The translations under genes were made by a program, and so were the position numbers. This document shows, piece by piece, positions 26,717 to 54,072 of a DNA stretch of 64,000 nucleotides. Position 1 is the stretch's first letter. Every line of letters begins with the position of its first letter. Below the pieces are notes generated by a model. The model saw nothing but the letters and a program-made list of their open reading frames with translations, did no database searches and had not been told where the DNA came from. The DNA comes from Patescibacteria group bacterium (lineage in GTDB: Bacteria; Patescibacteriota; Patescibacteriia; UBA1558; UBA10009), in contig JBAZSE010000001.1 of assembly GCA_041662565.1 (NCBI GenBank), forward strand, positions 193,084-257,083. The letters are read 5' to 3'.

Positions 26717-27181
26717 ATGAGAGGAAAACAAGCACCAAAAAGAAAAATCGCCCCGGAATCAAGATTCAGGAGCGTTAAGATAGCCAAGTTTATTAATTAC
26801 ATCATGCGTGACGGCAAAAAATCCACCGCCCAAAGGGTTGTTTATCAGGCCTTTGATATTGTGGCCGAAGTAACCAAAACGGATCCTTTGCAAATTTTTG
26901 AAGAGGCCTTAAAGCATGTTTCGCCATCCGTGGAAGTAAAAGGTAAAAGAATCGGTGGCGCTAACTATCAGATTCCTATGGTGGTAGCCGGCGATCGCAA
27001 ACTTTCTTTGGCTTTCCGTTGGCTGATTACTGCCGCCCAAAAGAGAAAAGGCAAACCAATGTCCGAAAAGTTAGCCGGTGAACTTATGTCTGCTGCTAAA
27101 GGTGAAGGTGAAGCAGTTAAAAAGAGAGAAGACACCTATCGCATGGCCGAAGCCAACAAGGCCTTTGCCCATTTTGCATAA
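26717..27181 (+). CDS. rpsG: 30S ribosomal protein S7
   Basis: Conserved S7 blocks; 154 aa. Confidence 0.95.
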   Translation: MRGKQAPKRKIAPESRFRSVKIAKFINYIMRDGKKSTAQRVVYQAFDIVAEVTKTDPLQIFEEALKHVSPSVEVKGKRIGGANYQIPMVVAGDRKLSLAFRWLITAAQKRKGKPMSEKLAGELMSAAKGEGEAVKKREDTYRMAEANKAFAHFA

Positions 27182-27372
27182 GATTGCTCCCGAGGCTAAA
27201 AAAATTTTTCGTCCTCGGCTCCCTCCTTCGTCTCGCCGCACTCTCGCTTCGGCCAGTTAAACTGGCCTTCGCTCGGTACGGCTCGCTCGGGGGACCCGCC
27301 TCGGACAGAGAAAAATTTTACTTACCCTCGCTCGCTTGATTATAAATAAAACTCATTAAAAATAAACTTACT

Positions 27373-29454
27373 ATGGCTCGTAAATATCCATTGGAAAAAT
27401 ATCGCAACATTGGCATTATTGCCCACATTGACGCCGGCAAAACCACCGTTTCCGAACGTATTTTGTTTTACACCGGCAAAAAACATAAAATTGGCGAGGT
27501 GCACGAAGGCGCCGCCGAAATGGACTGGATGGAACAAGAAAAAGAGCGCGGCATTACTATTACTTCAGCCGCTACTACCTGTTTTTGGCAGGATTGCCAA
27601 ATTAACATTATTGATACTCCGGGCCATATTGATTTTACCGTTGAAGTCCAACGCTCTTTAAGGGTGTTGGACGGCGGTGTGGTGGTATTTGACGGCGTGG
27701 CCGGCGTGGAACCACAATCCGAAACAGTTTGGCATCAGGCCGAAAAATTTAAAGTTCCTCGTATTTGTTTTATCAATAAAATGGACCGCATGGGCGCGGA
27801 TTTTTATAAAGATGTGGCCTCCATTCACAATCGCTTAACCAAAGCGGCTTATCCCGTGCAATTGCCAATCGGCGCTGCCGAAACATTTAAAGGCATTGTG
27901 GATTTACTTGGACGTAAGGCCTATTATTACCGCGATGATTTAGGTAAGGATGTGGAAGAAACCGAAGTGCCGGAAGATATGAAAGAGTTGGTGGAAAAAT
28001 ACCGCGAACAGTTGTTTGAGGCCGTGGCTTCAACCGACGAGGTTTTGATGAATAAATTTTTGGAAGGCCAGGAAATTTCCATTGCCGAATTTAAAAAGGC
28101 CGCCAGGCAAGCGGTTATTACCAATCAATTAGTTTTGATTTTTTGCGGCAGTGCTTTAAAAAACAAAGGCGTTCAGTTTTTGTTGGACGCGGTTTGTGAT
28201 TATCTGCCTTCACCCTTGGATATTCCACCCTTGGAATGTTACGAGCCGGGCGATAAAGAGCATAAAATTATTCGCAAGCCCGAAGATACCGAACCGTTTA
28301 CGGCCTTGGCTTTTAAAATTGCCACCGACCCTTACGTGGGTAAATTATGCTTTTTTAGGGTATACGCCGGAACATTAAAAGCCGGTTCCTATATATACAA
28401 TACTTCAACCGGTGAAAAAGAAAGAGTTGGCCGTATTTTAATCATGCACGCCAATCACCGCGAAGAAGTGGACGAAGTTAACTCGGGCGATATTGCCGCC
28501 TTGATCGGCTTAAAGGCCACCTATACCGGCAATACTTTATGTGATGAAGATCATCAGGTTGTTTTGGAATCCATTACTTTCCCCGAGCCGGTTATTTCCA
28601 TTGCCATTGAGCCCAAAACCAAACAAGACCAGGAAAAAATGGGCAATGCCATGCAGAAACTTATGGAAGAAGATCCAACTTTCCGCGTTAAAACCGATGA
28701 AGAAACTTTGCAAACCATTATTTCCGGCATGGGTGAACTTCATTTGGATATTATTGTTGATAGAATGAAGCGTGAATTTAAAGTTGAATGCAATGTGGGT
28801 AAGCCCCAGGTTGCTTATCGCGAAACAATTAGAGGCGAAGCCGAAGCCGAAGGTAAATACATTAGGCAGTCGGGCGGACGCGGACAATACGGCCATTGTT
28901 GGATTAAGATTGAACCTCAAGAAAGAGGCAAGGGCTTTGAATTCGTGGATCAGATTAAAGGCGGTAGCATTCCCAAGGAATTTATCGCTCCGATCCAAAA
29001 AGGTATTAAAGAGGCCTCTGATAACGGCGTGTTGGCCGGTTACCCATTTGTTGATTTTAGAGCCACGGTGTTTGATGGTTCTTACCACGATGTTGACTCT
29101 TCCGAAGCGGCCTTTAAAATTGCCGGTTCTATGGCTTTTCAATCAGCCGCCCGTAAAGCCGGTTTGGTTTTGCTGGAGCCGATGATGAAAATTGAAATTG
29201 TGACTCCGGAAGAATTTATGGGCGATGTGATTGGCGATCTTAGCTCCAAGCGAGGCCAAATCAATGAAATGACCGAGCGCTCTCAAATGAAAGTCATTGA
29301 CGGTTCCGTACCGTTGGCTTCAATGTTTGGCTATGCCACTTCGCTTAGATCCTTAACTCAAGGTAGGGCTTCGTACTCCATGGAATTTGACCATTACGCC
29401 GAAGTGCCTAAAAACGTGGAAGCGGAAATCGTGGAAGCCAGAGGCAAAAAATAA
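27373..29454 (+). CDS. fusA: Elongation factor G
   Basis: [10 protein letters not shown]1 motif, [12 protein letters not shown]; 693 aa. Confidence 0.95.
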
Positions 29455-41661: not shown

Positions 41662-42510
41662 ATGAAAACCAAAATATTTTTGGATAGCGGAGATCCGGCG
41701 GAAACAAAAATTGCGCATGAGTTGTTGGGTTATTTGGATGGGCAAACCACCAATCCCAGTTTGATTGTTAAACATCCGGAGGCGCAAGCCAGGGCGCAAG
41801 CAGGAAAAAAATTCTCTCAAGAAGAAATTTTTGATTTTTACCAAAAAGTTATTACCGAAATTTCAGCTTTAATTCCTGTTGGTTCAGTTTCGGTAGAAGT
41901 TTATGCGGATAAAGATACGAAGGCCGAAACAATGATCGAGCAGGGCTTAAAAATGAACAGTTGGATACCTAACGCTTGGATTAAGTTGCCAATTACCCCC
42001 GAGGGTTTAAAAGCGGCCACGGAATTGGTTAAGCAAAAAGTCCGCTTAAATTTAACTTTATGTTTTTCGCAATCCCAAGCGGCCGCAGTTTATGCCGCAA
42101 CTTTGGGTGCCGGTAAAGGCGAAGTTTTTGTTTCACCTTTTGTGGGTCGGTTGGATGATAGGGGAGAAAACGGTATGGATTTAATTGCCAATATCGTTAA
42201 AATGTATTCATCGGGCGATGGGCATGTGGAGGTTTTATCAGCCAGTGTGCGTAATCAAGAACATTTTAATGAATCCTTGCGTTTGCAGGCCGATATTATT
42301 ACTGCTCCCTTAAAAGCGATTCAACCTTGGGCCCAAGCCGGGCAAATAGTTCCGGGTGATGAATACGTTTATCCTAAGGGCAATTTAACGGCTATACCGT
42401 ATCAAGAAATTTCTTTAACTAAACCTTGGCAAGAATACAACATCCAGCACGATTTAACCGATAAAGGTTTGGAAAAGTTTGCTACCGATTGGAATGCGTT
42501 GATTGGTTGA
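41662..42510 (+). CDS. tal: Transaldolase / fructose-6-phosphate aldolase family
   Basis: IFLDSGDPAETK N-terminus; Schiff-base Lys context in a TIM barrel. Confidence 0.65.
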   Translation: MKTKIFLDSGDPAETKIAHELLGYLDGQTTNPSLIVKHPEAQARAQAGKKFSQEEIFDFYQKVITEISALIPVGSVSVEVYADKDTKAETMIEQGLKMNSWIPNAWIKLPITPEGLKAATELVKQKVRLNLTLCFSQSQAAAVYAATLGAGKGEVFVSPFVGRLDDRGENGMDLIANIVKMYSSGDGHVEVLSASVRNQEHFNESLRLQADIITAPLKAIQPWAQAGQIVPGDEYVYPKGNLTAIPYQEISLTKPWQEYNIQHDLTDKGLEKFATDWNALIG

Positions 42511-42553
42511 TAATTGACAAATTTTAAGGGTTTTGTAAAATAGAATAAATACA

Positions 42554-42600
42554 AACAGGGTCAAACAGCTATTATTAATGGCTTTGGCCTTTTTTTATTA
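42554..42600 (+). repeat. AAACAGGGTCAA element copy C (left copy of a 45-bp direct repeat), preceded by TTGACA-N16-TAAAAT
   Basis: aaacagggtcaaacagctattattaatggctttggcctttttttatta. Confidence 0.7.
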
Positions 42601-42670
42601 ACGACGTAGAGCGAGAGAAGCGAAAAGGTAATCTTTTCGCTTCCGAGCCGAGGAGTTAATATGTAATCAT

Positions 42671-42976
42671 ATGAAAATACAGATTTTGCCAGCAGTCAAT
42701 CAATTTGTATTTTCTTTAGACGAATCAATTATAGCCAAAGTTTTAAGAACTATTGATTTATTGGAAAGATTCGGCAATCAATTACAATTACCTCACAGTA
42801 AATCAGTTGGCCACCGCCTGTTTGAGTTAAGAATTCACGGCCGTCAAGAAATCCGTATTTTTTATGGTTATTATGAAAACAGAGCAATTTTGCTTCATGG
42901 TTTAATTAAAAAATCCAATAAAATTCCAAAACATGAATTAAGTACAGCTTATAGTCGTTTTAAAGATTTGACATAG
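42671..42976 (+). CDS. HigB/RelE-like (Gp49 family) type II toxin
   Basis: LFELRI..RIFYGYY..ILLHGLIKKSNKIPKHE pattern; toxin precedes an XRE antitoxin. Confidence 0.65.
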   Translation: MKIQILPAVNQFVFSLDESIIAKVLRTIDLLERFGNQLQLPHSKSVGHRLFELRIHGRQEIRIFYGYYENRAILLHGLIKKSNKIPKHELSTAYSRFKDLT

Positions 42977-43039
42977 TATAACATATACGTTATAATTGGC
43001 AATGAGTGAGGAGAGAAAATTTATTTTCTCTCCAAACGA

Positions 43040-43345
43040 ATGAACCAATTATATAAAATATACTTATTTTATATGGAATCCTATAAAAATTTTAAAAACA
43101 AGCTGTTAAAGAATCCAAATATTAAAAAGGCCTATGATGAATTAGGGCCTGAATTTGCCGTTATTCGGATGATTATAGCTAAAAGGCTCGCCGCTGGGCT
43201 TACCCAAACTCAGTTGGCTAAAAAATTGGGCACCAAGCAATCGGCTATTTCACGTCTGGAACAGGGATCGGCTAATCCATCCCTGGCTTTATTGGTTAAA
43301 CTTTCCAAAGCCCTTAATGCCAAGCTGGAAATTTCCATTTCTTAA
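43040..43345 (+). CDS. HigA-like XRE-family HTH antitoxin
   Basis: LTQTQLAKKLGTKQSAISRLEQG helix-turn-helix. Confidence 0.7.
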   Translation: MNQLYKIYLFYMESYKNFKNKLLKNPNIKKAYDELGPEFAVIRMIIAKRLAAGLTQTQLAKKLGTKQSAISRLEQGSANPSLALLVKLSKALNAKLEISIS

Positions 43346-43375
43346 AAGTATTAAGTTAAGGTGTGAAATTAAATT

Positions 43376-43573
43376 ATGATAAAAAATTTAAAAAATAAGA
43401 AAAATATTTGTAAACACGATTATAAAAATGCAGTACAGGTTGGCAATATTGATTATCAATGTCGTTTGTGTGGAAAATTACTCGATCCATGCGAGTGGTT
43501 TTTGATGAATAGTTTTGAATTTATTGATGTTGATGTAGTGAATAAAAAAATAACAAAAAAACGCCCTAGTTAA
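43376..43573 (+). CDS. Small zinc-ribbon-like protein
   Basis: CKHDY...CRLCGKLLDPC; 65 aa. Confidence 0.3.
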   Translation: MIKNLKNKKNICKHDYKNAVQVGNIDYQCRLCGKLLDPCEWFLMNSFEFIDVDVVNKKITKKRPS

Positions 43574-43688
43574 AGGGCCTTTTCAACCACGTTCCTATGC
43601 CGGTTGTCCCAGCCACGCCACCATCCGGTGACAGTTCGGAATACAGGTTTTTGTTTTTTTACGATATAATAACTTATTAACAGTGTCA

Positions 43689-43714
43689 AACCGCCCTCTC
43701 TGGGCGGTTTTTTG
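43689..43714 (+). terminator. Hairpin AACCGCCC-TCTCT-GGGCGGTT plus T6 in a GC-rich 220-nt spacer
   Basis: Read directly. Confidence 0.6.
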
Positions 43715-43797
43715 CACCCCAATCCACCACCGCCTGGTCCGCCTAGACGTAGTGCTGGCGGATTGCCAAACCAATATGAAAGTGGTACATTTTATAA

Positions 43798-44154
43798 ATG
43801 AATAATGATCAAAATACCAAACTCATTGAGCTTAAGGATTTCATTGATCAGTTTAGACAAGTCAGGGATTGGCAAAAATTCCATAACCCCAAGGATTTAG
43901 CCGAGGCCATAAGTGTGGAAGCGTCTGAGCTAATGGAATTGTTTTTATGGGGCGATAAACAGGAGTTTACCGATAAGGTTAATAACGATCCTGAATTTAA
44001 AACCAAGGTCAGTGATGAACTAGCTGATGTTTTAATCTACTGTATTGAATTTTCGCTTACCACGGGCATTGATCTATCAACTGCCATTATGGAAAAAATG
44101 ACCAAAAATGCTATTAAGTATCCGGTGGAGAAGGGTAAAAGGGAAGTTGGATAA
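43798..44154 (+). CDS. MazG-like nucleoside triphosphate pyrophosphohydrolase (all-alpha NTP-PPase)
   Basis: EASELMELF...DELADVLIYCIEFS EExxE/DxxxD motifs; 118 aa. Confidence 0.7.
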   Translation: MNNDQNTKLIELKDFIDQFRQVRDWQKFHNPKDLAEAISVEASELMELFLWGDKQEFTDKVNNDPEFKTKVSDELADVLIYCIEFSLTTGIDLSTAIMEKMTKNAIKYPVEKGKREVG

Positions 44155-44159
44155 GTATA

Positions 44160-44924
44160 ATGGGTTATGAAATTATGGCAAATTTAACCACGCTTGAAAA
44201 ACAGGTACTTGAAAAATTATTCCAAATGAATGGTGGTTATGTTTTGAATTTTTCAGATCGGACAATGAGAGAGTTTTTTAGAGACGATATAGGAATTGAT
44301 ATTTACAATCAAAAATATAACTATTTAAGCGGTTCAAAAGCTAATCGTATGCGTGGTTTGTGGTTAGAGGCAGATGAGAAAACTGTAGGTAAAAGTTTGT
44401 TGAAACTTATTGAATACATTGAAAATGAAATTTTGCTTGATAATTTAAAGCGAGTAGATTTTCCGAACGATAGAATGACCACTGTAAAAAATATTGGGGA
44501 AAAACTTCTTGGAACAAAAATAAAAATGGAAAATAAATCGCAAGCTACTTTTAAAAATGGCAACATAAATATAACCTTACAAAAAGAAGTTTTTGATCAT
44601 GTGCAAAAATTGTTGAATAGCGGGCATTATTTTAATGCCGTAGAAGAAGCTTATAAAATTGTTAGAAAAAAATTAAAAGACATTTCAGGAAAAGAGAAAG
44701 CTACAGATGCTTTTAGTTATGAAAATTGCGAAAAGATTTTTGGACATCCGCCTGTCGATGATGCAGAAAATGATTTTTTTGAAGGTATAAAATTTTTGCA
44801 TATGGCAATCCAGTTTTTAAGAAACGAAAAGGCGCACACGCCAGCTCGTGATCTCGATAAAAATTTAGCCATTCACTACATTTCGCTTGCTAGTTTGGCG
44901 TATGATCTAATAACCAGAAAATAA
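44160..44924 (+). CDS. HEPN-domain protein (Rx4H motif; TIGR02391-like)
   Basis: C-terminal FLRNEKAHTP matches HEPN Rx4-6H; alpha-helical; 254 aa; 5 nt after mazG-like. Confidence 0.5.
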   Translation: MGYEIMANLTTLEKQVLEKLFQMNGGYVLNFSDRTMREFFRDDIGIDIYNQKYNYLSGSKANRMRGLWLEADEKTVGKSLLKLIEYIENEILLDNLKRVDFPNDRMTTVKNIGEKLLGTKIKMENKSQATFKNGNINITLQKEVFDHVQKLLNSGHYFNAVEEAYKIVRKKLKDISGKEKATDAFSYENCEKIFGHPPVDDAENDFFEGIKFLHMAIQFLRNEKAHTPARDLDKNLAIHYISLASLAYDLITRK

Positions 44925-44926
44925 TC

Positions 44927-45910
44927 ATGACGAATAAATCATCAAATAAAAACTTGCGTAAGGCAAGCCAAGCAAAGAAAGACGAGTTTTATACCCAACT
45001 TTCTGATATTGAAAATGAGCTTAAGCATTATAAAGATCAATTTCGTGGCAAAGTGGTATTTTGTAATTGTGATGACCCCAAAGAAAGCAATTTTGTCAAA
45101 TATTTCAGCATGAATTTTGAGCATTTAGGATTGAAGAAATTAATCGCCACGCACTATAAAGATGCGAATTTGTTTACTAAAGAAGCGCCATATAAATTGG
45201 AATACACCGGCGATAAAAACGGTAATCGCACACCCGATCCGAGTGAATTCATGAAAAAGATGATTGGTACGGGCGACTTCCGTAGCGAAGAATGTATCAA
45301 ACTGCTTAAAGAAGCCGATATAGTGGTGACCAACCCGCCATTTTCTCTATTCCGTGAATACGTTGCGCAGCTTATCGAATACAGGAAGAAATTTTTGATT
45401 ATGGGTAATCAAAATGCGATTACTTATAAAGAAATTTTTAAATTAATTAAAGAGAATAAGATGTGGCTCGGGCAAAGTCTAAATGGTAAAAATATCTTAT
45501 TTGAAATTCCAGATTATTATGAAAGTTACTACAAAATTATAGGCGGTAAAAAATATGCATTTCCAAAAGGTGTAGTATGGTTTACTAACCTTGATGTGCC
45601 AAAACGAAGTGAAGAAATGGTATTGTACAAGAAGTATATTAAAAAAGATTATCCTACATATGATAATTATGATGCGATAAATATCGACAGGACAGAACAG
45701 ATTCCTCTAGATTATGCTGGAGGCATGGGCGTGCCGATTACTTTTTTACATAAATACAATCCTAAGCAATTTGAGATTTTAGATGGGCTTAATCGTTATA
45801 GTATTTTATTTGGACCCACTAAGGAAACTAGAGGTAAATATTTAGCACAAATAAATGGTAAGCCTATTTATGTTCGAATTGTAATTAAAAACAAGAAAGT
45901 AAAAAAATAA
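44927..45910 (+). CDS. N6-adenine DNA methyltransferase-like protein (NPPF motif IV)
   Basis: VVTNPPFSLF catalytic motif; EFYTQ N-terminus; 327 aa; 2 nt after the HEPN gene. Confidence 0.6.
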   Translation: MTNKSSNKNLRKASQAKKDEFYTQLSDIENELKHYKDQFRGKVVFCNCDDPKESNFVKYFSMNFEHLGLKKLIATHYKDANLFTKEAPYKLEYTGDKNGNRTPDPSEFMKKMIGTGDFRSEECIKLLKEADIVVTNPPFSLFREYVAQLIEYRKKFLIMGNQNAITYKEIFKLIKENKMWLGQSLNGKNILFEIPDYYESYYKIIGGKKYAFPKGVVWFTNLDVPKRSEEMVLYKKYIKKDYPTYDNYDAINIDRTEQIPLDYAGGMGVPITFLHKYNPKQFEILDGLNRYSILFGPTKETRGKYLAQINGKPIYVRIVIKNKKVKK

Positions 45911-45911
45911 T

Positions 45912-47003
45912 ATGAAAATTGAATTACATAAAATTCCAGTATATAAGGTGATTGCCGGTTACAGGGATAGCGCCGAGGAGGGCGTGGTGGCTTATAGCGG
46001 TAAACTTGATATTCGTCCGAAGTATCAGCGTGAGTTTGTCTACAAGGGTCACCAGCGTGACGCCGTTATAAAGACAATCAAAAACGGTTTTCCTCTTAAC
46101 GTGATGTATTGGGTTAAAACTGACGAGGGTAACTTTGAGGTTTTAGACGGCCAACAGCGTACTATTAGCGTAGGCCAATATGTAAACGGAGATTTTTCAC
46201 TTAATGATCGTTTTTTTCATAACTTGACTAATGAGGAACAAAGGCAGATTTTGGATTATGAACTCATGATTTATTTTTGCGAGGGCACGGACAAAGAACG
46301 GCTAGACTGGTTCAGGATAATTAATATTGCTGGAGAAAAATTGACTGACCAGGAATTGCGCAATGCAGTGTACACCGGCTCATGGTTGAGTGATGCTAAA
46401 TTGAAATTTAGCAAATCAAACTGTGCGGCATATCATCTAGCAAATGATGGCGGACAATTAGTAAGTGGATCACCAATACGACAAGAGTATTTGGAAACGG
46501 CACTTTCGTGGATTAACGATGGCAAGATAGAGGACTACATGGCTAAGCATCAGCATAATAAGAACGCTGACGAGCTGTGGGAATATTTTCAGAGTGTAAT
46601 TGCATGGGTACGAAAGACTTTTACAAATTATCGTCGAGAAATGAGCGGTGTACAATGGGGCGAACTGCATAACAAATTCAAAGACAAGAAACTGAACGCT
46701 GGCAAATTAGAAGCCGAAATCAAAGATTTAATGCAAGATGAAGATGTAACGAAAAAATCCGGTATTTATCCGTATGTTTTAACTCAAAATGAAAAATTTC
46801 TAAACATCCGTGCTTTTACCGATAAACAAAAGAGAGAGGCCTACGAAAGACGGAAAGGCGTTTGTGCAAAGTGTAAAAAATCTTTTGAAATTGGAGAAAT
46901 GGAAGCTGATCATATAAAACCTTGGCATGAGGGCGGTAAAACTGTTTCAGAAAATTGCCAGATGTTATGTAAGCAAGATAACAGAACTAAGTCTGGAAAA
47001 TAA
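45912..47003 (+). CDS. DUF262 (ParB-like, DGQQR motif) fused to a C-terminal HNH endonuclease
   Basis: IRPKYQREFVY and VLDGQQRTISVG DUF262 signatures; CAKCKK..EADHIKPWHEGGKTVSENCQMLCKQDNRTK HNH motif; start 1 nt after the MTase stop. Confidence 0.7.
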   Translation: MKIELHKIPVYKVIAGYRDSAEEGVVAYSGKLDIRPKYQREFVYKGHQRDAVIKTIKNGFPLNVMYWVKTDEGNFEVLDGQQRTISVGQYVNGDFSLNDRFFHNLTNEEQRQILDYELMIYFCEGTDKERLDWFRIINIAGEKLTDQELRNAVYTGSWLSDAKLKFSKSNCAAYHLANDGGQLVSGSPIRQEYLETALSWINDGKIEDYMAKHQHNKNADELWEYFQSVIAWVRKTFTNYRREMSGVQWGELHNKFKDKKLNAGKLEAEIKDLMQDEDVTKKSGIYPYVLTQNEKFLNIRAFTDKQKREAYERRKGVCAKCKKSFEIGEMEADHIKPWHEGGKTVSENCQMLCKQDNRTKSGK

Positions 47004-47094
47004 AAACGGCAGTATTAAGATTTAATAGATTGTATGTATTTATTGCAAAATTTTAAGAAAAGTGATAAAGTCATGGTGAATTATCTATAAAAAT

Positions 47095-48120
47095 ATGGAC
47101 AAAAAAGCATTTATTCAACAAATTGAAAAATTAAGGAATTCTAAGGTTATTACCTATTTAACTAGTGATAGGCAGGGTCCTGTTAACGCTAGAATTGCCA
47201 TGGATATAGTGCCTATTATAAGCAAGCAGTTAATGGCTATTGGTAAAACTGAAAATATCGATCTATTTTTGTATAGTTCGGGTGGCGACACCATGGTGCC
47301 ATGGAGATTGGTTTCCATGATCCGCGAATACTGCGAAAAATTTTCAGTTATCATTCCATATAAAGCTCATAGTTCCGCAACTATGATTTCTTTAGGCGCT
47401 GATGAAATTGTTATGAGTAATCTTTCAGAGCTTTCGCCAATTGATCCATCAACAGCTAATGTTTTTAATCCTAGTGATCCACAGAATCCTCAAAATAAAA
47501 TTCCTATCTCTGTAGAAGATGTGATGGCTTATTTTGATCTAGCAAAGAATAAGTTTGGCATTAAAAATGACGAAGATCTGGCTAAGATTTTTAATAAATT
47601 TGTGGAAGCCAATCCTCAAATTCATCCTTTGGCCCTAGGTAATATTAATAGGACTCATAATTTAATACGTAACCTCGCTAAGCGTTTACTAAAAAGTCAT
47701 AAAACGCCAATGAGGGAAGAAGAAATTGGTAAAATTGTTGATGATTTTACGGAAAAACTATATTCCCACCAATATTTTATTGGTCGTAAAGAAGCTAAGG
47801 AGGATTTAGGTTTAAAAAATGTTGTTTTTGCTGATGAAAGTTTAGCTAAAGCAATGACCGATTTATACGAAGAATATGCTAGGGAAATGGAATTTGGGAT
47901 TATGTGGAGTCCGGAAAATGAACTTGGTCTTAATGTTATGCAAAACACGAAAGATTATAAGATTGCTTTTATTGAGAGTGATAGTATTATTAATTGTTTT
48001 GAGTTAAAAATTGAATATAGGAAACAACAGATTAATATTATTCAACAAACTCCTCAGGGTCCAATCCAGGTGCCTCAAGAGCAGGTTGGATTTAAGATCG
48101 TTGAGCAGGGTTGGAAATAA
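47095..48120 (+). CDS. SDH-family (S49/ClpP-fold) serine protease
   Basis: LYSSGGDTMVPWRLVSMIRE..AHSSATMISLGADEIVM matches the SDH/ClpP-fold Ser nucleophile region; 341 aa. Confidence 0.55.
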   Translation: MDKKAFIQQIEKLRNSKVITYLTSDRQGPVNARIAMDIVPIISKQLMAIGKTENIDLFLYSSGGDTMVPWRLVSMIREYCEKFSVIIPYKAHSSATMISLGADEIVMSNLSELSPIDPSTANVFNPSDPQNPQNKIPISVEDVMAYFDLAKNKFGIKNDEDLAKIFNKFVEANPQIHPLALGNINRTHNLIRNLAKRLLKSHKTPMREEEIGKIVDDFTEKLYSHQYFIGRKEAKEDLGLKNVVFADESLAKAMTDLYEEYAREMEFGIMWSPENELGLNVMQNTKDYKIAFIESDSIINCFELKIEYRKQQINIIQQTPQGPIQVPQEQVGFKIVEQGWK

Positions 48121-48147
48121 ACTTTAATTAACATAAAAAATTTAACT

Positions 48148-48537
48148 ATGTCAAAACCAGTATTAAATTATATTATAATTTGTGAATCAGTGATAGTATC
48201 AGAGGATGGAAAATTTTCTATATTAAATATTTTTAGTGAAATTAATGCTAAACAATTTCCCGCAGCCCATCCAAAATTTGTTATTGTTAGTAATACCAAG
48301 GGGGAGCCTGGTAATTATAAACAAAAAATAGAAATCGTTAATTTACAAGATAATTCAGTAGCGGCTAAGGTTGAGTCAAGTTTTGGAATTAAAGAGGGCG
48401 GTATTAATGTTTTTTTTGGCAATTTTGTTAACACCATTTTTAATAATTCTGGCAAATATTGGATAAAAGTTACTTATGATGATAAAGATGTGGTCACTAA
48501 TGAAAATGATAACTTTTTCTTTGTTAAGCAGTTATAG
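48148..48537 (+). CDS. Hypothetical beta-rich small protein
   Basis: 129 aa, no motif. Confidence 0.3.
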   Translation: MSKPVLNYIIICESVIVSEDGKFSILNIFSEINAKQFPAAHPKFVIVSNTKGEPGNYKQKIEIVNLQDNSVAAKVESSFGIKEGGINVFFGNFVNTIFNNSGKYWIKVTYDDKDVVTNENDNFFFVKQL

Positions 48538-48539
48538 TT

Positions 48540-49082
48540 GTGTATATGAAAAATTTTGAGTTTAAAACAAATGATGATACTTCTACTACGACCAAGTCTG
48601 ATACATTAATCAGCGAAAGCGAGATAGGGGGAACTTTAAAATTTTTAAATGATCAAATTGTCAAGTTACAAGATAAGGCTAATGAGACAGCTGAAGATTT
48701 TAATCGTTTGGAAGGGCGTACTAACGTATTTAGTAATTTTATAATGGGATTAACATCTTTAGTAGCCGGAGTATTTTTTATTAGTGGAATATTTATTTTT
48801 TTAGATTATTGGAAATATAACCCGGAAAGGTTTGAAAAATTTATGGATAAAACAGAAGAAATTAAAGATAATTTTTATACAAAACAAGAAATGGATAAAA
48901 ATATCAATAATCATTATTTAACTATTAAAGATCAGTTAAATAAGGCTTTTGGCTTTGAAGTGGATTTAGATAATCAAAGTCAAGAGCTTGGGGAATTACG
49001 CAAGAGCAATGAATATTTATTAAAAGTAATTAATTGCCAAAAGGATAAGAGATATTGGCAATTTGAACAATGTTATAAATAA
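48540..49082 (+). CDS. Hypothetical single-TM protein with flanking coiled coils
   Basis: TM LTSLVAGVFFISGIFIFL; 3-nt gap after the previous gene. Confidence 0.3.
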   Translation: MYMKNFEFKTNDDTSTTTKSDTLISESEIGGTLKFLNDQIVKLQDKANETAEDFNRLEGRTNVFSNFIMGLTSLVAGVFFISGIFIFLDYWKYNPERFEKFMDKTEEIKDNFYTKQEMDKNINNHYLTIKDQLNKAFGFEVDLDNQSQELGELRKSNEYLLKVINCQKDKRYWQFEQCYK

Positions 49083-49227
49083 TAAATATTTTTTATTTTA
49101 TAAAATTTTTCCCTTTCTGTGGGATTTTTTATTTTCTTGATCCCCCTCTAAAATCATGCTATAATTCCTAAACAATTTAAATAAATTTGGCCTAAACTCT
49201 AGCTATTGCTGGGGCATGGTATAAAAT

Positions 49228-49325
49228 CGTTGAACACATCCAACCCGTCATTCAGGGCGTGTTCAACGTTGCGTAGGGAAACTTACGTAAGGCCCGCAAG
49301 GGCCTCCTGGTGGCGGGTTTTGTGT
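49228..49325 (+). other. GC-rich structured element (10-bp IR, GNRA hairpin GGCCC-GCAA-GGGCC, terminator-like CCCGC..GCGGGTTTT) in the leader of ORF 49370
   Basis: cgttgaacac..gtgttcaacg; ggcccgcaagggcc; gcgggtttt read directly. Confidence 0.4.
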
Positions 49326-49369
49326 TTCCGACATTTTAAGTCAGTCATTATTAACTAACTTTTTGTTTT

Positions 49370-49831
49370 ATGCAAACAACAAAAAATAAGGAAGAAATAA
49401 TCAACAAAATTTTAAATATTATTGAAACAGCCAAGCGTGAACAAATAGCTTATGATGTGCCAGATTGCGAGGGAGCGTTATGCTTTGATCTGGATTTTAG
49501 TGATATTACCCAGGCGGAAAAGTATAAAATTGGAGGTATTGCCCTGCATGTTTTTGGCGATTACGTAAAAAAGAGGGTCACTAAAGTGGAACAATCAGCT
49601 ATGTTAAAAATCGGCCAAGATGTGATGCTTGGTTCTTTTTTGGCGGCTAGGTTAGGGCATAAGGAGCTCTCGGACGAAATAACCAGGCGTTTGCTGGAAG
49701 CCCGATTGGGTTTACTAAAAGAAAACAAGGAGTTTAATTTTTATGAGCTTTTAGATCAGCAGTTTACGGAATATTTGGAGTTTTGCCAGCAGTATGACAG
49801 TCAAATTGCTTTGGAAAGAGGGGTTGTTTAA
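49370..49831 (+). CDS. Hypothetical protein
   Basis: 153 aa. Confidence 0.3.
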   Translation: MQTTKNKEEIINKILNIIETAKREQIAYDVPDCEGALCFDLDFSDITQAEKYKIGGIALHVFGDYVKKRVTKVEQSAMLKIGQDVMLGSFLAARLGHKELSDEITRRLLEARLGLLKENKEFNFYELLDQQFTEYLEFCQQYDSQIALERGVV

Positions 49832-49874
49832 GATATCTAAGTTGAGCAAAACTTTTTAAAATGGTAGTATTTAT

Positions 49875-50447
49875 ATGATGATAAAAAATCAAATAAAGCT
49901 ACATCAAAAGAATATTAAATATACTCTTCGAGTTAGCGCACGGGCACGGCAAATGAGGTTGGCGATATACTGTGACGGTAATTTTGTAGTTACGGTTCCG
50001 CAAAATGTGAGTGCTAATATTATAGAACAATTTATTATTACCAAGGCGCAGTGGATACTTAATAAATTGGAATATTTTAAAAGTATTGCTGGGCGGGTAT
50101 TTCCGGGCGGAAATAAAAAAGAGTATTTACAATATAAAGATAAGGCGCAGGTGCTGGCGCAAGAAAGGATAGGGTATTTTAATCAAACCTATAATTTTAA
50201 ATTCCATAAAATCAATATTAAAAATCAAAAGTCCCGCTGGGGCAGTTGTTCTAAAAAAGGCAATTTAAATTTTAATTATAAAATAGCTTTGCTTTCAGCG
50301 CGTTTGGCTGATTATATTATTGTCCACGAATTGTGTCATTTAGGGGAATTTAATCATTCCCGCAAGTTTTGGAATTTGGTGGCCTGCGTGATACCTGATT
50401 ATTTGGCCAGAAGAAATGAATTAAAGAAAAATAGAATTAAAAAATAA
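49875..50447 (+). CDS. YgjP-like (DUF45/M48-like, WLM-type) metal-dependent hydrolase
   Basis: C-terminal VHELCHLGEFNHSRKFW HExxH..H motif. Confidence 0.65.
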   Translation: MMIKNQIKLHQKNIKYTLRVSARARQMRLAIYCDGNFVVTVPQNVSANIIEQFIITKAQWILNKLEYFKSIAGRVFPGGNKKEYLQYKDKAQVLAQERIGYFNQTYNFKFHKINIKNQKSRWGSCSKKGNLNFNYKIALLSARLADYIIVHELCHLGEFNHSRKFWNLVACVIPDYLARRNELKKNRIKK

Positions 50448-50450
50448 AAT

Positions 50451-51674
50451 ATGAAAATAAATAATTATCTCAAATTAGTTATCACCGTTTTAGTTTCTTT
50501 ATCAGCCGGTTATCTTGGTTCATTTTTTACTACCCCGGCTATTCCCACTTGGTATGCCAATCTTGTTAAACCGGCTTTAAATCCGCCCTCATGGGTGTTT
50601 GCGCCCGTGTGGACCATTTTGTTTATTTTAATGGGTATTGCCGCGTATTTAGTGTGGCAAAAAGGTTTTAAACGGCAAGAAGTTAAATACGCTTTGGTTA
50701 TTTTTGCGGGCCAACTGATTTTAAATATTGTTTGGTCGGGTATTTTTTTTGGCTGGCAAAACCCGGGTGTTGCCTTTTTGGAATTAATTGTTTTATGGCT
50801 GGCGATTTTATCAACCATCAAGGTTTTTGCCAAAGTTTCTAAAACCGCGGCTTGGCTGTTAGTGCCATATATTTTATGGGTCAGTTTTGCCGGCTATTTA
50901 AATTTTTCCATCTGGCAGCTTAATAATTCGCCTGCGGTGGTAAAAAACAATTCTATTTTTGATCCCCAAAATTGTGCTTATGTTATAGAAGATCAGCCCG
51001 TTGTTTTAACTAATGGCTTAAGCGTGCAGGATGTTGTTGATGCCAACGCCAAAATTACCACCAAATATTTTGGCAATCAAGTTAATGCCGATTTTAATGC
51101 TGATGGTTTGGTTGATGTTGCTTTTTTGGCAACGCAAACTTCGGGCGGAAGTGGAACATTTTATTATACGCTGGTGGCTTTAAATACTTCTACTGGTTGC
51201 CAGGGTTTGGCAGCAGATTTTATCGGGGATAGAATTGCTCCGCAAACTACCGAATTTAAAGATGAGATGATTATCGTAAATTACGCCGATCGTAAAGCTA
51301 CTGAAAGTTTTGATGTGGCGCCATCAATTGGTTTAAGTAAATACTACAAAATTATTGATGGGCAGTTAAGAGCGGTTGTGCCGCCAATGTTGGATTACCG
51401 TAACGATCCAACCGTATTGGCTATTCAAAAAATGCTGATTGCCAAATATCCCAAGTATGCCAAAACCTTAGCCGTTAACCTTAGGCAGCAAACCGATATT
51501 TACGCTGTGGGTGCCATTAGTTTTGAGCCCGGTGAAGCCGGTGGCCAGTATTTAGCCGTAAAAGAAGGGGATAGCTGGCAATTGGTTTACGAAGGCAATG
51601 GCAGTGTTGATTGCGTTGCCATTAAGCAAAATTATCAATTTCCAACCGAAATGCTAGCCGGCTTTTGTGATTAA
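50451..51674 (+). CDS. TspO/MBR (tryptophan-rich sensory protein) domain fused to a roughly 250-aa C-terminal beta-rich domain
   Basis: Five TM helices with Trp-rich loops (PSWVFAPVWTILFILMG); long soluble C-terminus. Confidence 0.6.
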   Translation: MKINNYLKLVITVLVSLSAGYLGSFFTTPAIPTWYANLVKPALNPPSWVFAPVWTILFILMGIAAYLVWQKGFKRQEVKYALVIFAGQLILNIVWSGIFFGWQNPGVAFLELIVLWLAILSTIKVFAKVSKTAAWLLVPYILWVSFAGYLNFSIWQLNNSPAVVKNNSIFDPQNCAYVIEDQPVVLTNGLSVQDVVDANAKITTKYFGNQVNADFNADGLVDVAFLATQTSGGSGTFYYTLVALNTSTGCQGLAADFIGDRIAPQTTEFKDEMIIVNYADRKATESFDVAPSIGLSKYYKIIDGQLRAVVPPMLDYRNDPTVLAIQKMLIAKYPKYAKTLAVNLRQQTDIYAVGAISFEPGEAGGQYLAVKEGDSWQLVYEGNGSVDCVAIKQNYQFPTEMLAGFCD

Positions 51675-51730
51675 AAATAATGTATCAAATTTGACAAAGG
51701 TAGTTATTTTTCTTAAGATATTAATATAAT

Positions 51731-51776
51731 AAACAGGGTCAAGTAGCTATTATTAATGGCTTTGGCCTTTTTTATT
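51731..51776 (+). repeat. AAACAGGGTCAA element copy D (right copy of the 45-bp direct repeat), preceded by TTGACA-N17-TAAGAT
   Basis: aaacagggtcaagtagctattattaatggctttggccttttttattt; about 95% identical to copy C. Confidence 0.7.
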
Positions 51777-51779
51777 TCC

Positions 51780-52172
51780 ATGGATAAAGAATTTCAAAAA
51801 TGGCATTCTAAAAAAGAAAAATTACATAATGAAGCGTTAAGGTTGTTTTTTCATGAAAGAGAAGTTTGGTGGTGTTCTTTGGGGGTGAATATAGGTTTTG
51901 AACAAGATGGTAAGGGGGTTATTTTTTCTAGACCTATCCTGGTCCTAAAAAAATTTAACAACGAGGTATTTTGGGCATTATCCTTAACTACTAAGATAAA
52001 ACAGGGCAAGTTTTATGCCCCAGTTATTCTAAATGATAATGTACCCAGGTGTGTGATTGTTTCTCAGCTTCGTTTGATTGATGCTAAGCGGCTCATTGAT
52101 AAAATCGGCACAATCGGCAAAGAAAATTATAATCAAATTAAAAAAACAACCATAAATCTTTTTGATTCATAG
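51780..52172 (+). CDS. MazF/PemK-like toxin-fold protein
   Basis: G.EQDGKGVIFSRPILVL...ALSLTTK resembles the PemK GxEQxGxRPxLVxS..PxTS pattern; start taken after the repeat. Confidence 0.5.
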   Translation: MDKEFQKWHSKKEKLHNEALRLFFHEREVWWCSLGVNIGFEQDGKGVIFSRPILVLKKFNNEVFWALSLTTKIKQGKFYAPVILNDNVPRCVIVSQLRLIDAKRLIDKIGTIGKENYNQIKKTTINLFDS

Positions 52173-52316
52173 TCGTTCATTTCTGGGTAGCTTTTTTAGA
52201 GCCAACCCGAGGCCGAAGCCATTTATAAATATACTTTAACATATCAATAAAGCTTGTCAAGACGGTTATTTGACAAAACCCTTTATTTTCAATAAGATAA
52301 GCCGACAAAACACTAT

Positions 52317-52574
52317 ATGGAACGTCTTAAAGAAATTATTGAATTAATAGAAATAACCGGCGATAAATGCATTATTTTACAGCCGGATAAAGGGGCTTAT
52401 GTTGTCATGAAAATGTCGGATTATAGAGTTTTGGTGGAAAATGGCTTAAAAATAAGGCCAACTCCACAAATCAGCTCTTTTGCCAGGCCCGAAACAGATA
52501 TAAAACTGTACGAAATTCCCCAAATTGGCCAAAAAAACGCTGAAGCAGATATTTATTATCCCGAACCTGCTTAA
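52317..52574 (+). CDS. Phd/YefM-like antitoxin-fold protein
   Basis: ITGDKCIILQPDKGAYVVMKMSDYRVL pattern; preceded by the TTGTCAA-N10-TTGACAA operator-like IR. Confidence 0.5.
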   Translation: MERLKEIIELIEITGDKCIILQPDKGAYVVMKMSDYRVLVENGLKIRPTPQISSFARPETDIKLYEIPQIGQKNAEADIYYPEPA

Positions 52575-52765
52575 GCACACAAAAGGGCCTGCCCCGACTT
52601 CGCTTTAGCGAACTTCGTGGCTAATGTTAGTAAAGTGGGGATAGAGCAATTTTATTTAAGATATAAAATGGCTTGTCTTAAATCTTACAAAGTTCAATTT
52701 TATGGCTAATATTAGCCATAAATTAGTTTAAAAAGCAAAATTAAATCAATAGTGGTCAGGGGTAC

Positions 52766-52794
52766 TTGCATTTTTTTTTACAACTTGCTATAAT
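52766..52794 (+). promoter_or_regulatory. tuf promoter TTGCAT-N17-TGcTATAAT (extended -10)
   Basis: Read directly; 90-nt leader ending in aaggag SD. Confidence 0.6.
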
Positions 52795-52884
52795 CAACCC
52801 TGACTTTTAAATAATTAATTTAGACGGCTGGGTAAAACTGCTCTACTATCAGGGCAGGCCGTTATCAAAAAAGGAGTATTTCAT

Positions 52885-54072
52885 ATGGCTGAAGCATTTG
52901 ATCGCTCAAAGCCCCACGTCAATATCGGAACCATTGGTCACGTTGACCACGGCAAAACCACCTTAACCGCCTGTATTTTAAATTACATCGCGGCTACCGG
53001 CGGTAAAGCCCAAAAGAAAAACGTTGATCAGATTGATAACGCTCCGGAAGAAAAAGAGCGCGGTATTACTATTGCCACTGCTCACGTGGAATATGAAACA
53101 GCCAAAAGGCATTATGCCCACGTTGACTGTCCAGGACACGCCGACTACGTTAAAAACATGATTACCGGCGCAGCTCAGATGGACGGCGCAATTTTAGTCG
53201 TTAGCGCTGCTGACGGCCCTATGCCTCAAACCCGCGAGCACATTTTGTTGGCTCGTCAGGTTGGTGTACCTTATATTGTAGTTTTCTTAAACAAAGTAGA
53301 TCAAGTTACCGATCCTGAATTAATTGATTTGGTTGAAGAAGAAGTTAGGGATTTATTGAAGAAATATGAATTCCCTGGCGATGAAACCCCAATTATCAGA
53401 GGTTCGGCTTTAAAGGCCTTGGAAGATCCAAAAGGTGAATACGGCGCCGCTATTCAAAAACTGTTGGATGCCGTTGATAGCTACATTCCGGAACCTGTTA
53501 GAGATATTGCCAAACCTTTCTTAATGCCTGTTGAAGATATCTTTTCCATTGAAGGCCGCGGCACCGTTGTTACCGGTAGAATCGAAAGAGGCGTGGTTAA
53601 AATCAATGAAGAATTGGAAATTATCGGTTTGGGTGATACTAAAAAAACCGTTATTACCGGTATTGAAATGTTTAACAAGTCCTTGGACGAAGGCCGAGCT
53701 GGCGATAATGCCGGATTGCTTTTAAGAGGCACTAAAAAAGAAGAAATTCAAAGAGGTCAGGTTTTGGCTAAACCGGGTAGTGTTACCCCTCATGCCGAAT
53801 TTGAATCCGAAGTTTATATCTTAAGCAAGGATGAAGGCGGTAGACACACTCCTTTCTTTAAGGGCTATAAACCTCAATTCTACATTAGAACCACCGATGT
53901 TACCGGAGAAGTGGAATTGCCGGAAGGCGTGGAAATGGTTATGCCTGGGGATACCATTACCTTCAAAATTAAGTTAATTCAACCGGTTGCTTTGGAAGAA
54001 AAGCAGAGATTTGCCATTCGAGAAGGCGGTCATACTGTTGGCGCCGGCGTTGTAACCAAGTTTATTAAATAA
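52885..54072 (+). CDS. tuf: Elongation factor Tu
   Basis: [22 protein letters not shown]; 395 aa. Confidence 0.95.

Follow-up and report, generated by a model that had tools for sequence, protein, structure and literature searches.

Seven open reading frames (ORFs) packed onto one strand of a patescibacterial contig raise the question of whether they act together as a single defence system. The locus lies at positions 43798–49082 of a 64,000-nt stretch from a Patescibacteria group bacterium (contig JBAZSE010000001.1, assembly GCA_041662565.1), and this whole stretch is called the window in the following. A first-pass annotation of the bare sequence had described a tightly packed run of MazG-like, HEPN, methyltransferase and DUF262-HNH genes, followed by a protease, a beta protein and a membrane protein, and had taken them for a candidate undescribed defence system. 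The observation as such could be confirmed, while its interpretation is supported in part: a restriction-modification (R-M) pair, a HEPN toxin candidate and the island context stand, and the seven-gene system does not. We consider it likely that the region is a mosaic defence-type island of independently mobile gene-sized blocks, in which a type II R-M pair is accompanied by a Ymh-family HEPN gene as a passenger. What is new here is another type II R-M system that carries a Ymh HEPN gene within its operon, both of known kinds; only the part formed by an SDH-type protease, a DUF6941 protein and a transmembrane (TM) protein is potentially novel, and this part is uncharacterised.

All seven ORFs exist on the + strand as described (43798–44154, 44160–44924, 44927–45910, 45912–47003, 47095–48120, 48148–48537 and 48540–49082), and every domain assigned to them from the letters was found again by profile search, with the matches given gene by gene below. 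The gaps between them are, in order, 5, 2, 1, 91, 27 and 2 nt, so that the first three had been read exactly and the fourth nearly so (about 90 nt), while the last had been given as 3 nt; the probable revised start of the HEPN gene would additionally widen the first gap to 20 nt. Translational coupling, which had been deduced from this spacing, does not follow from it. Functionally unrelated neighbours in the same window (rpe/tkt, LOG/transaldolase and YgjP/TspO) are also separated by 3–5 nt and gaps are generally short in a genome as compact as this one, and tight spacing is therefore non-discriminating.

The nucleotide comparison is more informative. A blastn search of positions 42400–52900 against 177 fetched loci returned homology in three blocks, at 44170–44923 (Ymh), about 44917–47007 (methyltransferase and endonuclease) and about 47086–48128 (SDH protease), and the block ends are no more than about 10 nt away from ORF boundaries. 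Among the same 177 loci, ORF-length nucleotide homology was absent for HigBA, MazG, DUF6941, the TM protein, orf153, YgjP and TspO. Since the homology stops at ORF edges, the locus appears as an assembly of gene-sized blocks, which circulate independently among genomes of the candidate phyla radiation (CPR). Five such blocks would be distinguished: the R-M pair (44927–47003), the Ymh gene (44175–44924), the MazG-like gene (43798–44154), the SDH protease gene (47095–48120) and the pair of DUF6941 and TM genes (48148–49082), with the last two co-occurring repeatedly. The endonuclease, Ymh and SDH proteins keep 76–91% identity over deeply divergent lineages of the CPR and in Omnitrophota (L007–L086, L087–L166 and L167–L177). 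High protein identity combined with homology that ends at ORF ends suggests that gene-sized units are exchanged at high frequency. CPR organisms are often described as defence-poor; here, defence genes with 80–90% identity across deep lineages form a common pool of the Patescibacteria, pointing to very active exchange of gene-sized units.

To what extent the seven genes belong together was assessed on two comparison sets, 80 loci of other genomes fetched around the R-M pair (L007–L086) and 80 metagenomic loci fetched around the SDH protease (L087–L166), 44 of which have room upstream. If all seven genes, or the four-gene and three-gene modules together, formed one undescribed multi-gene defence system, their co-orientation and tight packing within a repeat-bracketed island would be accounted for, and so would the three of the 80 other R-M loci in which an SDH gene lies a few kb or less from the pair, once with DUF6941 (L084). 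The remaining counts speak against it: beside the R-M pair, the MazG-like gene is found in one of the 80 loci, Ymh in two, DUF6941 in one and the TM protein in none, and the R-M pair is missing upstream of SDH in all 44 loci with room for it. The set is thus not conserved together elsewhere, its nucleotide homology breaks at every gene boundary and its short gaps occur equally between unrelated housekeeping genes of the window. We regard such a system as extremely improbable, and as far as the sampling allows, it is refuted. This removes a false lead, as what looked like a seven-gene operon is a type II R-M system already in the catalogues, placed next to unrelated cassettes and a HEPN passenger whose kind was described in 2013.

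At the centre of the locus, genes 3 and 4 are, by their family profiles and synteny, a catalogued, conventional type II R-M system and not a new one. The methyltransferase (MTase; 44927–45910, + strand) is a predicted type II N6-adenine DNA methyltransferase of the EcoRI-methylase family, which carries the catalytic (D/N)PP(Y/F) motif as NPPF and is matched full length by PF13651 (EcoRI_methylase, 5.8e-128) and by the PADLOC profile MTase_II PDLC03297 (2.4e-122). The restriction endonuclease (REase; 45912–47003, + strand) joins a DUF262/ParB-like N-terminal domain (GmrSD_N/DUF262, PF03235, 6.6e-17, with DGQQR) to a zinc-ribbon HNH domain (PF01844, 9.4e-12), and its residues 1–363 align with positions 1–372 of the PADLOC profile REase_II PDLC03418 (1.2e-134). 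More than 8000 relatives of the REase were found at E<=1e-20, the best of them 84–91% identical and distributed over many named CPR lineages, and a scan with one genome per species placed relatives in at least 574 genomes. With both partners matching curated type II profiles at full length, this core is an already named system, which contradicts the expectation of an undescribed one and agrees with the suggestion that MTase and REase form an R-M-like self/non-self pair. The EcoRI-family MTase would mark host DNA and the DUF262-HNH endonuclease would cut DNA that is unmarked, as their family membership implies.

The MTase gene lies upstream of the REase gene on the same strand in 77 of the 80 loci, mostly adjoining it and commonly with a 1-nt gap, and all other flanking positions of the pair are variable. 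Tightly linked upstream ORFs comprise controller-like helix-turn-helix (HTH) genes (7/39), Ymh (2/39) and further MazE, PemK, AbiEii, Fic, NUDIX and SDH genes, and the downstream genes are heterogeneous as well. One or two extra ORFs stand between the two genes in 17 of the 80 loci; loci with such inserts are L016, L021, L023, L024, L028, L034, L036, L039, L051, L054–L056, L059, L063, L064, L066, L072 and L085. Pfam matches of the inserts include DUF2130, T5orf172/MUG113, RhuM and AAA_21/AAA_15, and one insert is a TM/coiled-coil protein. Accessory genes thus seem to insert preferentially at the junction between MTase and REase. Compared between the window and L007–L086, the MTase is less conserved than the REase (median identity 55% versus 78–89%); in L028, it additionally contains an insertion of about 40 amino acids upstream of the NPPF motif, with the C-terminal part staying conserved. 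In type II pairs, the REase is usually the faster-diverging partner, and the reverse order seen here is unusual.

The pair shares with classical type II systems the adjacent, co-oriented MTase and REase genes with full-length matches to curated profiles, the NPPF motif of the MTase, an HNH nuclease with a Cys4 zinc ribbon and, in a subset of related loci, a small upstream HTH controller-like gene. It differs from them in the DUF262/ParB-like N-terminus of the REase, better known from type IV enzymes, and in the upstream genes of the window copy, which has Ymh and MazG in place of an HTH controller gene. The N-terminal domain raises the alternative that the DUF262-HNH protein is a modification-dependent type IV enzyme of the GmrSD, BrxU or SspE kind, with the adjacent MTase being unrelated or antagonistic. 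Those DUF262-DUF1524 enzymes likewise fuse an NTPase-like DUF262 domain (DGQQR) to a His-Me-finger nuclease, and weaker PADLOC matches to NsnA and PD-T4-2_A point in the same direction. However, the type II REase profile fits over the full length and better by about 100 orders of magnitude (1.2e-134 versus 2e-25), and the C-terminus is, as had also been noted at first reading, a classical HNH domain (PF01844), and a DUF1524/GmrSD_C (PF07510) match is absent. Moreover, the MTase precedes the REase in 77 of 80 loci, often across a gap of 1 nt, which is the pattern expected of a cognate pair. A type IV assignment is therefore very unlikely and was rejected on synteny and profile evidence.

The type II pair is joined upstream by a Ymh-family HEPN gene (ORF opening at 44160, + strand), in which an N-terminal part of about 139 amino acids precedes a C-terminal HEPN domain with the Rx4H motif FLRNEKAH. 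Profile matches are to PF09509 (1.5e-14, 54.3 bits at a cut-off of 25) and TIGR02391 (1.4e-25, 89.8 bits at a cut-off of 39.45). The search returned 1357 relatives, and the matches listed, which come from CPR genomes, are about 76–90% identical and 249–250 amino acids long. Because of this length and because nucleotide homology begins at 44170–44173, the gene probably starts at 44175 and spans 44175–44924, and the gap to the MazG-like gene consequently amounts to 20 nt. No Pfam match and no P-loop family was found for the N-terminal 139 amino acids, and a sequence search of solved structures gave no match for Ymh, REase or MTase.

Close relatives of Ymh lie inside an R-M operon, of type II or type I, in 14 of 14 other loci. 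The order Ymh-MTase-REase of the window recurs in L002/L007, L008 and L167, and an extended order HTH-Ymh-MTase-T5orf172-REase-AAA_21 is seen in L170–L175, where the gene in the HTH slot of L174 has no family call. In L168, which has a fragmented REase, Ymh sits between MTase and REase, and the same order is probably present in L169, whose flanking genes have no family call. A type I operon, hsdM-Ymh-hsdS-...-hsdR, is found in L176 (3448–10753), which also holds an AAA_33-like gene and whose Ymh is 78% identical to that of the window; L177 shows this hsdM/hsdS-type arrangement cut short (Ymh-hsdS...). Since the same Ymh protein occurs in the type I operons of L176 and L177, one HEPN passenger serves R-M systems of different types.

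This agrees with Table 1 of Anantharaman et al. 2013 (PMC3710099), where Ymh (PF09509) is listed with a conserved Rx4-6H motif and as being in operon with R-M. The same authors proposed that R-M-linked HEPN RNases are kept inactive by R-M proteins and are freed when a phage disables restriction, in analogy to PrrC/EcoprrI. Ymh is thus a known kind of R-M-linked accessory gene whose product, by this analogy, is most likely a latent RNase, and the first-pass annotation was right to see a probable toxin or part of an abortive-infection mechanism in the HEPN protein. Ymh would be held in check by the R-M proteins, and phage neutralisation of restriction would release it as a suicidal second line of defence, as put forward for the family (PMC3710099). 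PrrC-EcoprrI, an anticodon nuclease within a type Ic R-M operon, is alike in placing an Rx4H HEPN gene inside R-M operons, which for Ymh includes the hsdM-hsdS context of L176. In contrast to PrrC and other R-M-linked HEPN families, Ymh carries neither an ABC-ATPase nor a paraMORC regulatory domain and its host system here is of type II. As its N-terminal 139 amino acids match no family and include no ATPase domain, Ymh falls outside the PrrC/RloC family, although its mode of action may resemble that of PrrC. A gene that is about 80% identical in type II operons, at two different positions, and in a type I operon offers a natural test case for the proposed model of R-M-guarding HEPN proteins.

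The first gene of the row (43798–44154, + strand) encodes a MazG-like all-alpha NTP pyrophosphohydrolase of the RS21-C6/DCTPP1 type, with matches to PF12643 (1.8e-14, 54.1 bits at a cut-off of 27) and to phrog_3301 (pyrophosphatase, 1.5e-17) and with structural homologues in the PDB entries 4qgp (4.5e-17) and 6sqw (DCTPP1, 1.9e-14). As far as sequence comparison goes, it is a one-off, lineage-specific neighbour outside the conserved Ymh-MTase-REase block. It is absent from all 14 other Ymh loci, and the further contigs with MazG beside Ymh found by exact-sequence look-up are all 100% identical to the window and therefore stem from the same strain. Moreover, the conserved Ymh nucleotide block begins past the MazG stop codon. 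The joint MazG and HEPN toxin module suggested by the first-pass annotation thus finds no counterpart in an independent genome. In related operons, the slot filled here by MazG holds the small HTH controller gene; MazG would then be a probably co-transcribed gene and not a conserved partner.

An alternative reading would make MazG, Ymh, MTase and REase a true four-gene unit in this strain, in which the HEPN toxin is gated by a nucleotide signal tuned by MazG (dCTP, modified dCTP or an alarmone), or in which MazG itself depletes nucleotides. The regulation of PrrC by dTTP and the position of mazG within the mazEF operon of E. coli lend this idea some precedent. It further gains from the distance of just 20 nt between MazG and Ymh with no predicted terminator between them, and from L028, the one locus of the 80 in which the island with this R-M pair has a MazG-like gene (42% identical). 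There, the gene is placed between a Fic gene and a Panacea-HTH antitoxin/MazF toxin pair, directly upstream of the latter, and two genes separate it from the MTase. MazG domains have also been predicted computationally as defence domains, without validation (PMC13092281). Against these points stand the count of zero in 14 other Ymh loci, the restriction of further MazG-Ymh contigs to the same strain, the Ymh block starting past the MazG stop codon and the missing PADLOC model match for MazG; in PADLOC-DB v2, no families were hit at E<=0.1 by MazG, Ymh, SDH, DUF6941 or the TM protein. On balance, a four-gene unit is unlikely. As a clear sequence relative of RS21-C6/DCTPP1 (E about 1e-14), the MazG-like protein could hydrolyse canonical or modified dCTP. 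Nucleotide-depletion defences such as dCTP deaminase and dGTPase differ from it in using deaminase or dGTPase folds, whereas MazG here has no conserved defence linkage and is not in PADLOC. A housekeeping, house-cleaning role and a dCTP-type defence role of MazG are equally plausible. A single-query search of viral contigs returned no relatives of MazG.

Several points weigh against the mosaic with its type II pair as we read it. Terminator prediction returned none between MazG, Ymh, MTase and REase, and these four genes may well form one transcript in this strain. Together with a hairpin upstream of MazG, the lack of predicted internal terminators makes a local functional interaction with MazG conceivable. 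This hairpin with its T-run (accgccctctctgggcggtttttt, + strand, 43688–43713) lies between an RNA motif of the DUF3800-IX family and MazG; it was read by eye, is unlisted in the + strand terminator scan and would insulate the four genes from upstream transcription. The SDH gene, counting the window in addition to the three of 80 other loci, is repeatedly found at a distance of a few kb from this R-M pair, which could point to a weak functional affinity instead of common residence in islands. Finally, the term type II relies on profile membership and synteny, because the PADLOC profile names do not identify a REBASE prototype; a literature search named no prototype enzyme either. A recognition-site test used observed/expected ratios from a Markov model, for all 5-mers and for the 4- and 6-mers that are palindromic, in the window, in 1.0 Mb from 80 carrier loci and in 0.53 Mb from 80 control loci; it brought out no palindrome or k-mer depleted specifically in carrier genomes.

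The DUF3800-IX motif itself, an Rfam RNA motif, occupies 43581–43649 on the − strand of the GC-rich spacer, 149 nt upstream of MazG (54 bits against a gathering score of 36.8). It recurs in antisense orientation 160–380 nt upstream of the MTase in L072 (6069–6149) and L013 (6510–6590) and was found in none of the 80 SDH loci. That this RNA regularly accompanies the R-M cassette was rejected, with only 3 of about 81 R-M loci containing it. Two same-strain Logan contigs end at the same position within the motif, 43625, suggesting that it is multi-copy in the samples of these contigs.

Downstream of the R-M pair, the second group of genes begins with an SDH-type serine protease of ClpP fold (47095–48120, + strand), with Ser93, Asp117 and His225 as its predicted catalytic residues. 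It matches PF01972 (2.4e-14, 53.5 bits at a cut-off of 31.3), NF047768 (8.5e-17) and phrog_11747 (5.3e-42); since the NCBIfam equivalog cut-off is not reached (61.5 versus 250 bits), it is to be regarded as a family member and not as an equivalog. Gly63-Gly64, Ser93, Asp117 and His225 are invariant in an alignment with six homologues of 22–37% identity. As the family-defining order Ser-Asp-His is kept across homologues, the protease is probably active. Relatives number 2391, the best of them being 80–85% identical and belonging to CPR and Omnitrophota, and the exact protein of the window is annotated in a Patescibacteria metagenome-assembled genome at NCBI. A single-query search of viral contigs found no relatives.

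The neighbours of the protease vary. Upstream, the commonest gene is RadC (17/80 loci); downstream, at least six alternative families occur, including a family of about 200 amino acids, a pair of 61 and 82 amino acids, and DUF6941. Of 54 loci, 26 have a predicted TM protein as the first or second gene downstream, compared with 5 of 69 upstream ORFs. The commonest downstream partner is the family of about 200 amino acids (13 ORFs), which has an N-terminal TM helix and a tail of the form ...KLK(R/K)IA(R/K)M(K/D) and is exemplified by L028 6036–6635, L092 5189–5800 and 12 related ORFs. It has no Pfam match and also follows directly downstream of the REase in L028. In E. coli, a full-length homologue of the protease with 35% identity (WP_044064371) is present as a solo gene in 47 of 5426 complete genomes. 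In these lambdoid prophages, it is encoded on the opposite strand and is flanked by the Q antiterminator gene and the gene of the lambda-family holin (e.g. L178 2229–3224 on plasmid NZ_CP081704 and L188 3501–4496 on the EC11 chromosome). The Q-holin interval of prophages is a typical slot for accessory and defence morons. Since the gene stands alone there, the SDH protease can act without DUF6941.

The two remaining genes follow 27 nt after the protease gene. The 129-aa beta protein of the earlier description is a standalone DUF6941 protein (48148–48537, + strand; 1.2e-18), which is modelled from a multiple sequence alignment as an all-beta, immunoglobulin-like sandwich with a predicted local distance difference test (pLDDT) of 96.5; a single-sequence AF2 model, which gave a pLDDT of 49, was set aside. 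Fold searches returned generic Ig-like sandwich matches only, none of which hinted at a function, and the protein is probably a binding module. The family comprises 454 clusters at 50% identity, almost all of them standalone proteins of 125–135 amino acids. No relatives were found in viral contigs with DUF6941 as a single query and no match in plasmids. The last gene (48540–49082, + strand) encodes a single-pass membrane protein, as had been read from the letters. Its N-terminal half is coiled or disordered, a single hydrophobic helix lies around residue 63 and the C-terminus carries a conserved tail of the form Cys...Trp...Cys-[F/Y]; the protein has no Pfam, PADLOC or NCBIfam family.

In the window and, at 28–40% identity, in L099, L113, L115, L162, L181, L182 and L185, the gene after DUF6941 encodes a small protein whose TM helix is central, and the two ORFs overlap in L181, L182 and L185. 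A tail of the form Cys-x(6-9)-Trp-x(2-5)-Cys with Phe, Tyr or Leu as the next residue is shared by the window, L162, L181, L182 and L185. An SDH gene precedes this pair in the window and in L099, L113, L115, L162 and L181, but not in L182, and in L185 the gene upstream of DUF6941 is cut off by the contig end. In L183 and L184, DUF6941 has neither SDH nor a TM partner, and L084 contains a divergent SDH-DUF6941 pair (about 30% identity) beside this same R-M system. The association of SDH, DUF6941 and TM protein is thus recurrent but facultative. It is common in Patescibacteria and Omnitrophota, with solo SDH relatives in E. coli prophages.

One may speculate that these blocks encode a protease-controlled membrane effector. 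In its full form, this idea describes SDH, DUF6941 and the TM Cys-loop protein as a new self-contained conflict module, acting against phages or in exclusion, in which the protease controls a membrane effector and the beta-sandwich serves as sensor or adaptor. The trio recurring in five other loci, the SDH-DUF6941 pair in L084, the enrichment of TM proteins downstream of SDH, the intact catalytic triad, the position of the E. coli homologue in the Q-holin moron slot and neighbours that include RadC, AbiEii, Fic, MTases and R-M genes are all consistent with it. However, SDH has many alternative partners and stands alone in E. coli, the DUF6941-TM pair occurs without SDH in L182 and DUF6941 with neither in L183 and L184, no defence-database match was obtained, and a literature search brought up nothing on SDH proteases in defence and no papers on DUF6941 or TIGR02391. 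A non-defence role, for example in the processing of envelope proteins, would fit the same data. We therefore treat the self-contained module as a tentative possibility. A broader version, in which 47095–49082 is an undescribed, horizontally mobile conflict module with a ClpP-fold protease controlling interchangeable membrane effectors and in which Ymh is a portable guard for type I and type II R-M operons, appears rather doubtful.

The nearest parallels to a protease gene followed by small membrane proteins in mobile, defence-rich neighbourhoods are membrane effectors gated by a protease, such as bacterial gasdermin, and Abi pairs of a sensor and a membrane effector, such as RexAB, a likeness which is a mechanistic analogy only. 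They differ from the present genes, which encode an SDH/ClpP-type protease, an Ig-like sandwich and a single-TM Cys-loop protein with interchangeable partners and no gasdermin-like fold. Within the mosaic of separately moving blocks, SDH together with the small membrane proteins that vary beside it, among them the DUF6941/Cys-loop pair, is the open candidate, with no member found in the defence database or the literature searched, and the E. coli prophage relative makes it tractable.

The surroundings of the seven genes support the defence-island context that had been assigned to them. The GC content is 0.29–0.34 over 44–49 kb, compared with about 0.40 elsewhere in the window. A 65-nt direct repeat (42531–42595 and 51709–51773, 82% identical, with the final 45 nt or so of the two copies nearly the same) brackets a block of 9.1 kb, inside which no integrase was found. 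The right copy overlaps the promoter region of a PemK/MazF-like ORF at 51756 and holds its start codon and first six codons, as would be expected if an insertion had duplicated the 5' end of this gene. Among the island neighbours, profile searches identified a Gp49/HigB-like gene with its HTH partner, the PemK/MazF-like gene and the YgjP hydrolase named earlier; of the three toxin–antitoxin modules first counted, two were recovered and the Phd-like gene gave a weak match of 7e-4, below the cut-off. A location inside the str operon holds loosely, in that the island falls between fusA and tuf, but rpsG-fusA (26717–29454) and tuf (52885–54072) are about 23 kb apart. This interval contains copper-ATPase, DsbA-like and pentose-phosphate genes in addition to the island, and the usual continuity of the str operon is broken here.

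Further features of the block include an Rfam LOOT RNA motif at 49189–49305 (+ strand; 79 bits against a gathering score of 46.4), between the TM Cys-loop gene and orf153, of which a second copy lies in L062 (13150–13262), about 4 kb downstream of the REase. Also inside the repeat-bracketed block, 3 nt past YgjP, a gene at 50451–51674 fuses a TspO/MBR domain (residues 13–155) to an extension of about 250 amino acids without a family match.

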